DNA of 3,334 bases, from the NCBI RefSeq assembly GCF_003334785.1, contig NZ_QOWV01000051.1; one strand, 5' to 3'. The position numbers and the translations under genes are program-made. This document shows positions 175 to 3,334 of the stretch, piece after piece. Within the stretch, counting starts at the first letter, position 1. Each line of letters begins with the position of its first letter. This DNA comes from Escherichia coli (GTDB lineage Bacteria; Pseudomonadota; Gammaproteobacteria; Enterobacterales; Enterobacteriaceae). Below the pieces are notes generated by a model. The model searched no databases, had not been told where the DNA came from, and saw only the letters and a list, made by a program, of their open reading frames with translations.

Positions 175-203
175 GGTGCGCGTAATGCGACGTTATGGTA
201 AAT
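175..203 (+). other. cer-like XerC/XerD site-specific recombination core (plasmid multimer resolution site)
   Basis: Seen in sequence: GGTGCGCGTAA-TGCGACG-TTATGGTAAAT. Right arm is identical to the ColE1 cer XerD arm as I recall it; left arm is one mismatch from the dif XerC arm GGTGCGCATAA. Central region is 7 bp (cer has 8, dif/psi 6). Accessory sequence would extend upstream across the wrap point. Confidence 0.5.
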
Positions 204-351
204 GCTGTGATTTACGGGATGGTTTTATCTATGTTGATATCAATACCACCTCTTATGGAGGTGGCTTACACCGATTTTTCCTTGTTGTCTGTTTCAGAAC
301 AGATAGAGGCTTTTTTGGCAATTATCCAACCACTATTGATAGTGTTTATTA

Positions 352-504
352 CTACTTAGATAACTGAGCCTTTACTGTATCTGCCCCTGCAAGCAGGAAC
401 CCAACAGTTAAGAACCACCCCCAGCCATTGATACCTTTTAGCGCTAGAATTGCTGCGCAAATGATGGCTGCTATAGGGACTATCTGGTACAGAAAATACT
501 TCAT
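352..504 (-). CDS. Hypothetical small hydrophobic protein (50 aa), possible membrane peptide
   Basis: Hand-translated ORF absent from the supplied track: ATG at 504..502 (- strand), stop TAG at 354..352. Product MKYFLYQIVPIAAIICAAILALKGINGWGWFLTVGFLLAGADTVKAQLSK has two hydrophobic segments. Weak SD-like GGGGT 7 nt upstream of the ATG; possible promoter GTGACA(561..556)-17-TCTCAT(538..533). Contains rare ATA and CTA codons. No recognisable family. Confidence 0.3.
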   Translation of the reverse strand: MKYFLYQIVPIAAIICAAILALKGINGWGWFLTVGFLLAGADTVKAQLSK

Positions 505-582
505 ATAACTTACCCCGAGGTTTTGCTTTTTTATGAGACCCTAAAGCATCGATACTGTCACTTTGATGCTTTAAGGACCTTC

Positions 583-864
583 TTAGTGATAATCCTCGAG
601 ATCCACGTCAAAGACGTTAGGTTCTTCGAGCTTAAACACTACGCGCCAGTTTCCATTGACCTCTAACGAATACTCTCCTTGACGGTCTCCCTTCAATGGA
701 TGGCAGCGCAATGCCTTTAAATCCATCATATCCTGCAAGTTCGTCGCTGTGCTTAAGGCTGTTAGGATCAGCTTCAGACGTTGAGTAAACTGTTGCGGAA
801 TTCCTGCGTTGTTACCTGTTTCGGCAAACTTACGCAAACCTTTATGCTTGATATTTATGATCAT
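583..864 (-). CDS. higB: HigB-family toxin (plasmid maintenance system killer protein, RelE/ParE superfamily mRNA interferase)
   Basis: 93-aa ORF from the track. Motifs IKHKGL..F...G....GIP, HPLKGDR.G..S..VNGNWR and C-terminal DVD.EDYH match my recollection of the HigB/killer-protein family. ATG at 864..862 with GGTG SD-like sequence 4 nt upstream; stop TAA at 585..583. Confidence 0.85.
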   Translation of the reverse strand: MIINIKHKGLRKFAETGNNAGIPQQFTQRLKLILTALSTATNLQDMMDLKALRCHPLKGDRQGEYSLEVNGNWRVVFKLEEPNVFDVDLEDYH

Positions 865-1001: not shown

Positions 1002-1029
1002 TTGACATTGGTTTGATGCGCTGTACAAT
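1002..1029 (+). promoter_or_regulatory. Near-consensus sigma70 promoter, rightward, presumably driving higA with a roughly 170-nt leader
   Basis: Seen in sequence: -35 TTGACA (1002..1007), 16-bp spacer, -10 TACAAT (1024..1029). Predicted start near 1036. Confidence 0.5.
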
Positions 1030-1208: not shown

Positions 1209-1505
1209 ATGATTAATCTTGTCGATCCAGTACATCCAGGGGTTTTTATCCGTGAGATGTTTATGGAACCGTTTGAAATATCAGCCGCGGACCTGTCTGA
1301 AAAACTGCATGTATCACCTTCCACTCTAAGTAGAGTGCTGAATGGAAAAGCTGATTTAAGTGTTGAGATGGCATTAAGGCTTTCTCGAGTTCTTGGTCGC
1401 AGTGCCGAGTCGTGGATAAACATGCAGACTCAATACAGTCTTAACGCGAGCAGGAAGTCACCTAATGTCATTAAGGAATTAGATGAATTGGTTCCTATAT
1501 TTTGA
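1209..1505 (+). CDS. higA: HigA-family antitoxin (XRE-type helix-turn-helix addiction module antidote protein)
   Basis: 98-aa ORF from the track. N-terminal VHPG..IRE.F.EP...S...L...L.VS...LSR.LNGK..LS.EMALRLS...G.S.ESW.N.Q..Y.L matches the HigA-family HTH pattern as I recall it. ATG at 1209 with GAGGAAGG SD immediately upstream; stop TGA 1503..1505 followed by a terminator hairpin. Confidence 0.85.
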   Translation: MINLVDPVHPGVFIREMFMEPFEISAADLSEKLHVSPSTLSRVLNGKADLSVEMALRLSRVLGRSAESWINMQTQYSLNASRKSPNVIKELDELVPIF

Positions 1506-3257: not shown

Positions 3258-3334
3258 TGTCCGAAAATGTGTCTCATGGGCACCGTATGCGCCCAAACCG
3301 ATCGCCATTCACTTTCATGCATAGCTATGCAGTG
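3258..3334. repeat. Terminal redundancy: exact 77-bp copy of positions 1..77, indicating a circular molecule of about 3257 bp
   Basis: Checked base by base: 3258..3334 equals 1..77. The window ends at 3334, so the match may simply be truncated there. Confidence 0.9.

Follow-up and report, generated by a model that had tools for sequence, protein, structure and literature searches.

The DNA analysed here, which we call the window, is a stretch of 3,334 nucleotides from Escherichia coli (RefSeq assembly GCF_003334785.1, contig NZ_QOWV01000051.1). On its minus strand, downstream of higB, a gene for a HigB-like toxin, it carries an open reading frame (ORF) of 50 codons that we call smp. An earlier note on this DNA, made from the letters alone, had placed the frame 78 bp past the higB stop, and its exact coordinates hold: the stop codon lies at 583–585 and the spacer of 78 nt at 505–582. 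The same note had taken higB to lack an adjacent antitoxin gene; this does not hold, because higA, which matches TIGR02607, adjoins higB in divergent orientation. A comparison of the window ends showed that bases 1–77 are identical to bases 3258–3334, so the window runs once around a 3257-bp circle and a little beyond. PLSDB contains 40 plasmids that match the window, all but one at 99% identity or more (39), with sizes of 3255–3258 bp and with E. coli, Salmonella, Shigella and E. fergusonii as hosts. Their origin is of the ColE1 type, and RefSeq annotates three coding sequences only on the matching plasmids. The features of the window are collected in Table 1; homologous loci are cited by our own labels (L and P numbers).

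Of the ORFs in the window, 21 are 50 aa or longer, and only three of these are annotated genes. The length of smp alone is therefore within chance, and its significance rests wholly on comparative evidence. A tblastn search against plasmids returned 160 smp records, which beyond a near-identical set comprise homologues at 38–62% identity, and a search of protein databases added members at 82–84%. The sampled homologues are intact and retain both the ATG and the Shine-Dalgarno sequence. The sole exception is an Enterobacter hormaechei plasmid (L011, 2950–3153) with frameshifts in smp and in an AbiLi-like gene. As these frameshifts are located at homopolymer runs, they look like sequencing errors, and we discounted a joint decay of AbiLi and smp for the same reason. 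Between the window and its 82–84% relatives, differences at codon positions 1/2/3 number 9/1/21 and 11/1/24, with 20–25 synonymous differences (Sd), 9–10 nonsynonymous differences (Nd) and a ratio of nonsynonymous to synonymous rates (dN/dS) of 0.05–0.09. Between clades, dN is 0.04–0.5, synonymous sites are saturated and dN/dS is 0.04–0.21. The codon-position pattern and the dN/dS values together exclude conservation as a DNA or RNA element. The earlier note had named homologous small ORFs in related plasmids, and their synonymous versus nonsynonymous conservation, as a check on the frame; these ORFs are intact and nonsynonymous change in them is suppressed. Fifteen residues are invariant (M1, F4, P10, L20, A21, G27, W28, G29, W30, F31, L32, G40, D42, T43 and V44). 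Judged by this conservation, smp is a genuine, previously unannotated protein-coding gene. The Prokaryotic Genome Annotation Pipeline (PGAP) leaves it uncalled in all 26 complete E. coli genomes that bear it, and it is likewise uncalled in every PLSDB copy of the plasmid that was inspected.

The smp peptide (MKYFLYQIVPIAAIICAAILALKGINGWGWFLTVGFLLAGADTVKAQLSK) has a grand average of hydropathy of 1.07 and two hydrophobic stretches, the first a full-length transmembrane (TM) segment and the second shorter. The earlier note had described two such stretches; hydropathy agrees on this with the AlphaFold model, a helical hairpin with helices at residues 2–22 and 29–49 and a confidence (pLDDT) of 72.6. 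The product is thus predicted to be a 50-aa helical hairpin in the inner membrane, with TM1 at residues 3–22. After TM1 come a short tryptophan-rich turn and the start of helix 2 (GWGWFL; INGWGWFLT in the window), and helix 2 finishes in a conserved tail, G40-A-D-T-V-K45. Residue 2 is lysine or arginine and the tail is basic, which suggests that both termini are inside (N-in/C-in) and that the tail would face the cytoplasm. The ribosome-binding site that the earlier note considered plausible has counterparts at the equivalent position of homologues, which carry GGAGG, AGGAG or GGGGG, and the rare codons that it pointed out, ATA and CTA, each occur twice.

Looking for known families, we found no Pfam, NCBIfam or PADLOC match for the smp protein; the Pfam scan covered the protein and 10 relatives, the PADLOC scan four family members. 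None of these proteins matched Hok/Gef in Pfam, nor did NCBIfam give such a match. No holin, pinholin or antiholin family was matched in Pfam, the PHROG lysis families or NCBIfam, and the window has no endolysin or spanin gene. We also looked for the lipobox (L-x-[GAS]-C) of colicin-plasmid lysis lipoproteins, which smp lacks; its only cysteine, C16, is preceded by A-I-I and its position is not conserved (serine in clade B, where the neighbouring gene matches AbiLi). The family scans and residue conservation thus ruled out Hok, lipoprotein and colicin-lysis protein identities. Only one library family, phrog_14810, which has no annotated function, matched the smp protein, weakly yet consistently (E = 6.3e-05; from 2.6e-06 to 0.04 for 19 relatives). 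The match spans TM1 and the GWGWF motif, and the 48-position profile lacks the plasmid-specific tail; the scores are weak.

A profile search over 1.84 billion representatives gave 488 representatives of clusters at 50% identity with E ≤ 0.001, nearly all of 35–80 aa. All those read have the layout ...(I/V)LA(F/Y)xGxDGWGWFLF.... A second search gave 1362 clusters at 90% identity; no Pfam domain is recorded for any of them, and no source gives one a functional name. On these sequence features, smp belongs to a superfamily of small membrane proteins with a GWGWFLF motif, without a name so far and overlapping phrog_14810, which we define by a length of 35–60 aa and by an N-terminal TM helix, with many small residues, ahead of (D/N)GWGWFL(F). 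Within it, a plasmid subfamily, to which smp belongs, ends helix 2 in a tail, G-(A/V/S)-D-(T/V)-(V/I/L)-x-K, and has HigBA or AbiLi/AbiLii as a neighbour.

The arrangement seen in the window, with higA divergent and smp following higB, recurs on other plasmids with parallel divergence of all three genes. In L017, L018 and L019, HigB is 90–92%, HigA 95–98% and smp 82–84% identical to the window, and PF05015 is recorded on the HigB proteins of L017 and L018 (90–91% identical). In L006–L009, L012 and L032 the respective values are 71–75%, 70–73% and 38–45%; here the cassette has the opposite orientation with respect to the origin, and smp lies beside the RNAII promoter region and not beside cer. 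More distant members occur in other orders: P0005 and P0006 are divergent from a canonical higB-higA operon, and P0007 follows higA after 12 nt on a plasmid whose Rep protein is of the RPA type. Beside P0005–P0007, HigB and HigA are just 26–33% identical to their window counterparts. The linkage of HigBA and smp is therefore seen in three arrangements of the genes and also on another type of replicon. A scan of metagenomes with degenerate DNA patterns found 28 loci, six of which were chance matches inside large proteins. The other 22 were small ORFs: 14 adjacent to HigBA, seven adjacent to AbiLi/AbiLii, one on a contig too short to tell and none away from both modules, so that 21 of the 21 assessable tail-bearing members adjoin a HigBA or AbiL module.

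Two further observations concern individual cassettes. On a 148-kb conjugative Raoultella plasmid (L010, 3938–4225), a TnAs1-family transposon cuts the higA-higB-smp cassette and swaps the final smp residues for a 38-aa read-through extension. Directly downstream of smp, the metagenomic loci L014 (395–676) and L018 (1427–1708) carry a 93-aa ORF in which a unit of about 23 aa occurs four times in tandem (IYRTVSHVDGWNGLPQYEIRG); it is 85% identical between the two loci and has no family annotation.

The nearest non-identical smp clade (56–62% identity) lies away from higBA and is divergent from a two-gene operon. The ATPase of this operon matches AbiLi in PADLOC (E = 3.6e-72), and AriA at E = 1e-29. 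The AbiLi/AbiLii pair adjoins smp in L003 (29–1768, minus strand), L013, L137 and L138, which are ColE1-type plasmids of 4.7–5.8 kb from Enterobacter, Klebsiella, Citrobacter and E. coli. In this clade smp has a promoter-like sequence of its own, TTGACA-17-TAGCAT (sigma-70, 10/12), 84 nt upstream. The AbiLi-like ATPase and its 145-aa partner have no annotation beyond 'ATP-binding protein' and 'hypothetical', and the ATPase of L137 and L138 spans the record origin and is absent from the gene table. The earlier note had put smp forward as a possible third member of the higB locus. Conserved neighbourhood, three gene orders and co-divergence of smp with HigB and HigA support this; an exclusive tie to higB is not supported, as the AbiL clade shows.

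Table 1. Features of the window, ordered by position.
Feature	Position	Strand	Details and source
cer-like XerC/XerD core (presumed name)	175–203		GGTGCGCGTAA-TGCGACG-TTATGGTAAAT; 0 expected by chance in shuffles
GC-rich 8-bp hairpin	245–265	−	about 90 nt past the smp stop; weak U-tract
Extra in-frame stops TAA TAA	346–351	−	directly after the smp TAG; three consecutive stops in total (346–354)
smp	352–504	−	50 codons; ATG 504–502, TAG 354–352 (ORF list)
Shine-Dalgarno-like GGGGU	512–516	−	7 nt before the smp ATG
Intercistronic hairpin	539–576	−	12-bp stem, 14-nt loop; between higB stop and smp ribosome-binding site
higB	583–864	−	HigB-like toxin, RelE/ParE superfamily; RefSeq on identical plasmids
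Promoter-like TTGACA-16-TACAAT	1002–1029	+	towards higA; 11/12; same geometry in L006
Promoter-like TTGACT-17-TATGAT	1095–1123	−	towards higB and smp; 10/12; equivalent in L006
higA	1209–1505	+	helix-turn-helix antitoxin, divergent from higB; TIGR02607 96.3 bits (cut-off 47.7); RefSeq
RNAI	1581–1681	−	ColE1-type origin; 91 bits
rop	2502–2696	−	

The minus-strand promoter-like site ahead of higB would be the promoter of a higB-smp transcript. The earlier note had also suggested a promoter of its own for the ORF, which we did not recover: a sigma-70 scan gave no site at threshold between higB and smp, in the window or in L006. The divergent higA and higB genes have their best promoter-like sites facing each other, with 10–11 matches of 12, in the window as in L006 (482–510, plus strand; 573–601, minus strand), although the proteins of L006 have diverged by about 70%. 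From such facing promoters the higA and higB mRNAs would overlap in antisense at their 5′ leaders and would read through each other's promoter. This face-to-face geometry is unusual for a type II toxin–antitoxin (TA) pair, which is normally a single operon.

Between higB and smp, an inverted repeat (539–550/565–576, 92% complementary) forms a hairpin that is present in both the minimum free energy and the centroid folds. L006–L009, L017 and L018 also have a hairpin at this position, with a stem that differs in part (CTAATCCATCC/GGATGGATTAG in L006–L009). The window hairpin is not a terminator, because no U-tract follows it; we rejected an intrinsic terminator between higB and smp, as neither strand has a properly ordered U-tract. 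It lies upstream of the smp ribosome-binding site and leaves that site unsequestered in the fold, and it could be an mRNA stabiliser, a processing site or a damper of translation. In L139 (3882–4000) and L143 (1794–1962), where higB and smp are divergent, palindromes lie in the region between the two genes (GCACA-N7-TGTGC; TGCACA-N7-TGTGCA). Both genes could share them as operators for HigA, which would place smp in the HigA regulon.

Downstream of smp, the fold of 215–355 (minus strand) has z = −2.4; its GC-rich hairpin failed the terminator scan and is a possible 3′ end of the transcript. A promoter-like site at 315–343 on the plus strand (9/12) could drive an antisense RNA; its score is within chance expectation, and it has no counterpart in L006. 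The XerC/XerD core, presumed cer-like by its resemblance to the ColE1 cer consensus, lies downstream of smp, about 150 bp from its stop. We dropped a linkage of smp to cer, because in clade C the neighbour of smp is the RNAII promoter region. The plus strand between the cer-like core and smp has ORFs of 83 aa (116–367) and 54 aa (195–359) that slightly overlap the 3′ end of smp; NCBIfam gives no match for the 54-aa ORF.

Phages carry most of the family: a search for the exact DGWGWFLF coding pattern gave 92 IMG/VR contigs, compared with 17 contigs of 100,044 species genomes. Members are found in the nin region of a Salmonella lambdoid prophage, between rusA and DUF1367/Q, in Klebsiella virulent phages, and on contigs of about 183 and 248 kb that resemble large phages. 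In 63 of 103 loci the gene upstream of the phage member belongs to one endolysin cluster, phrog_7, whose N-terminus looks like a signal-anchor-release (SAR) domain; the endolysin neighbours are SAR-type where checked. The gene downstream is an Rz-like spanin (phrog_13) in 60 of the 103. Salmonella phage UPF_BP1 (L134, 2501–2608) has the order holin, endolysin, 35-aa protein, spanin with 4-nt stop/start overlaps, and for the neighbour in Klebsiella phage RCIP0114 the annotation reads SAR endolysin. The 35-aa version is under purifying selection, with nonsynonymous below synonymous polymorphism (pN < pS) outside the motif in 881 of 915 pairs.

The 35-aa relative (for example MRYLPSAVCFAAAGYLAAHGIDGWGWFLFVGVILL) stands between endolysin and Rz-like spanin, its stop and start codons overlapping with those of its neighbours, in L134, in L135 (2501–2605) and in about 60 IMG/VR loci among L042–L133, and it is annotated as hypothetical or left unannotated. 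It may be an overlooked component of the lysis cassette. A search of E. coli genomes for the 35-aa gene gave matches to the flanking lysozyme and lysis-protein genes only. The 64-aa single-TM antiholin ORF52 of BSPM4, described from Chi-like phages (PMC11657625), was considered as a relative of smp and not linked to it, since no Chi-like phage is among the phage search matches.

Several known systems resemble parts of this picture. In the relBEF operon of E. coli, relF (hokD) encodes a hok-like inner-membrane toxin and is co-transcribed downstream of relE (PMC3598666). Like smp, relF has about 50 codons, encodes an inner-membrane protein and comes straight after the gene for an mRNA-interferase toxin of the RelE superfamily, and relBE-relF is the closest architectural precedent, analogous and not homologous to smp. 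There is no sequence relationship between the two (Pfam, including Hok/Gef, was negative); the antitoxin gene comes first in relBEF, whereas higA is divergent here. Hok has one TM segment and a periplasmic domain with cysteines, whereas smp has two hydrophobic segments. GhoT, a functional precedent, is a 57-aa type V membrane toxin with two TM segments under the control of MqsR/MqsA, a RelE/HigB-like interferase and a helix-turn-helix antitoxin. Its gene lies apart from mqsRA and its antitoxin is a separate one, GhoS, the coupling running through cleavage of ghoS mRNA; GhoT has no known sequence similarity to smp, and a coupling of the ghoS type has no visible counterpart in the smp locus.

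With the membrane proteins of lysis cassettes (holins, pinholins, antiholins and the Mu releasin gp25), the phage relatives of smp share a position between the endolysin and the i-spanin. As in those proteins, the family is small with a TM helix, and the plasmid form has a charged C-terminal tail. It differs in that it matches no holin, antiholin or releasin family and in that the smp plasmid has no lysis cassette. A length of 35 aa is below the size of known holins. The Mu releasin is reported to be a DUF2730 protein with a single TM segment (PMC9239132). The Caulobacter higBA-higX locus provides a caution: HigX is membrane-associated and toxic when overproduced, and it adjoins HigBA yet acts independently (PMC13384398), so that a membrane-associated third gene beside HigBA need not work with HigBA. 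Neither HigX nor the chaperone of toxin–antitoxin–chaperone (TAC) systems is a 50-aa hairpin, and neither is homologous to smp. In HigB-HigA-SecB-like TAC systems the third gene encodes a cytosolic chaperone.

We consider it somewhat more likely than not that smp is a membrane-acting accessory of addiction or abortive-infection (Abi) modules on small plasmids, and hold this as the best overall explanation with moderate confidence. From its anatomy, smp would be the distal cistron of a higB-smp transcript made from the higB promoter. Synteny suggests that it is a recurrent companion, on small plasmids, of HigBA in three orders or of an AbiLi/AbiLii-like pair, and the association looks functional rather than accidental. 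Its partners are an mRNA-interferase TA system and an Abi-type ATPase, often agents of addiction or abortive infection, which favours a membrane action that complements a cytoplasmic toxin: smp might form an envelope-directed arm beside a nucleic-acid-directed one. As the same tail motif occurs with HigBA and with AbiL, we argue for a common host or phage target and not for contacts with HigB or HigA. An acutely toxic peptide is made less likely by the promoter of smp beside AbiL, which is strong and looks constitutive, and by the co-transcription of smp with the antitoxin gene in L144.

How smp would act is more speculative, and here our belief is limited. It may work in the inner membrane through helix-helix contacts that alter membrane integrity or a step of lysis; interference with the phage holin/SAR-endolysin step is favoured, because the phage relatives are built into SAR-endolysin lysis cassettes. 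Premature lysis, blocked lysis and self-depolarisation are all possible directions of the effect. A wider reading, for which our expectation is lower again, is that the GWGWFL proteins are a new functional class acting on phage lysis through the inner-membrane holin/SAR-endolysin machinery. The 35-aa version would then be a fourth lysis-cassette component in phages, and on small plasmids the tail-bearing version would have been captured as the membrane arm of HigBA- or AbiL-based abortive-infection cassettes.

A number of points weigh against this picture of a membrane-acting module component. Most plasmid HigB-like genes have no smp: there are 429 HigB-like records (109 at 60% identity or more to the window HigB) for 160 smp records, which makes smp an optional accessory of certain small-plasmid lineages and not a core TA part. 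Adjacency is partly forced, because small plasmids hold few genes. The near-consensus promoter of smp in the AbiL clade fits a constitutive, non-toxic protein better than a killer. The second hydrophobic segment of smp is short, at about 14–15 residues. As to the phages, the viral sample is redundant (37 unique proteins among 66 loci), other phage members lie in nin regions or among early genes, outside lysis cassettes, and function may differ between subfamilies, because the 35-aa proteins lack the helix 2 tail.

Other explanations have to be set against it. That smp is no gene but a chance ORF, its DNA conserved as a cis element (higB 3′ untranslated region or cer accessory sequence) or as a small RNA, is hardly credible. 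RefSeq never annotates it, most of the window's ORFs of this size are spurious, it uses rare codons and the cer-like core is close by; the earlier note had itself left a chance ORF as an equal alternative. That alternative falls on the same comparisons as before, in which substitutions pile up at third codon positions with dN/dS of 0.04–0.2, and on the survival of the protein motif at 38% identity despite synonymous saturation of the DNA. Frame, start and Shine-Dalgarno sequence are also kept in other contexts without cer, there are hundreds of protein-level relatives, and Rfam has no match in the smp region. If smp is accepted as a protein, it could be a killer like HokD/RelF, a membrane-depolarising co-toxin nearly silenced by the intercistronic hairpin and HigA repression and made on derepression, adding a membrane hit to mRNA cleavage by HigB for post-segregational killing or abortive infection. 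Its position equals that of relF downstream of relBE (PMC3598666), it is small, very hydrophobic and a predicted two-helix hairpin, the RNA hairpin immediately precedes its ribosome-binding site, and the L139 and L143 palindromes are possible operators shared with HigA. We nevertheless think such a killer unlikely. The protein is unlike Hok/Gef or other known toxin families in Pfam, NCBIfam and PADLOC; in the AbiL clade it has a 10/12 sigma-70 promoter and no visible antitoxin, and in L144 it is co-transcribed with the antitoxin gene, 12 nt downstream of it. A leaky killer would be costly on high-copy ColE1-type plasmids, as RNAI marks these to be, and scans of the window and L006 showed no conserved antisense promoter.

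We likewise give little credence to smp as independent cargo, a stand-alone protective membrane protein (for superinfection exclusion, a block to phage DNA entry or immunity) that clusters with its partners without depending on them. Having two unrelated partners, HigBA and AbiL, is what one sees with defence genes in islands; beside AbiL, smp has a strong promoter to itself, the majority of HigBA loci have no smp, and relatives of smp turn up in the nin regions of prophages and among the early genes of phages, both common sites of exclusion genes and morons. Independence is harder to reconcile with the immediate proximity of HigBA or AbiL in 21 of 21 assessable tail-bearing members, with the co-divergence of smp, HigB and HigA, with co-transcription of smp with higB or higA in two architectures, and with a linkage that outlasts three rearrangements and changes of HigB subfamily and replicon type.

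We therefore return to smp as a membrane-acting accessory of plasmid addiction and abortive-infection modules. It is an unannotated gene of an uncharacterised family, and synteny supports the idea of a third component, with a small membrane protein appended to a TA or Abi module. If the linkage is functional, a widespread plasmid HigBA cassette and AbiL-type cassettes would have in smp a third gene that annotation has missed, and RelE-family toxin modules would be joined to a membrane component, in a pairing otherwise known only for relBE-hokD and MqsRA/GhoST. Should the reading as a lysis-acting class be true, it would define a new tripartite TA/Abi architecture. Plasmid inventories and catalogues of TA and defence systems under-count smp, because PGAP misses the gene. 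Beyond the plasmid, the analysis exposes a large family of small proteins, with at least 488 clusters at 50% identity, no Pfam family and no functional name, and a single plasmid gene offers an easy genetic handle on this family, which has members in phage lysis cassettes.

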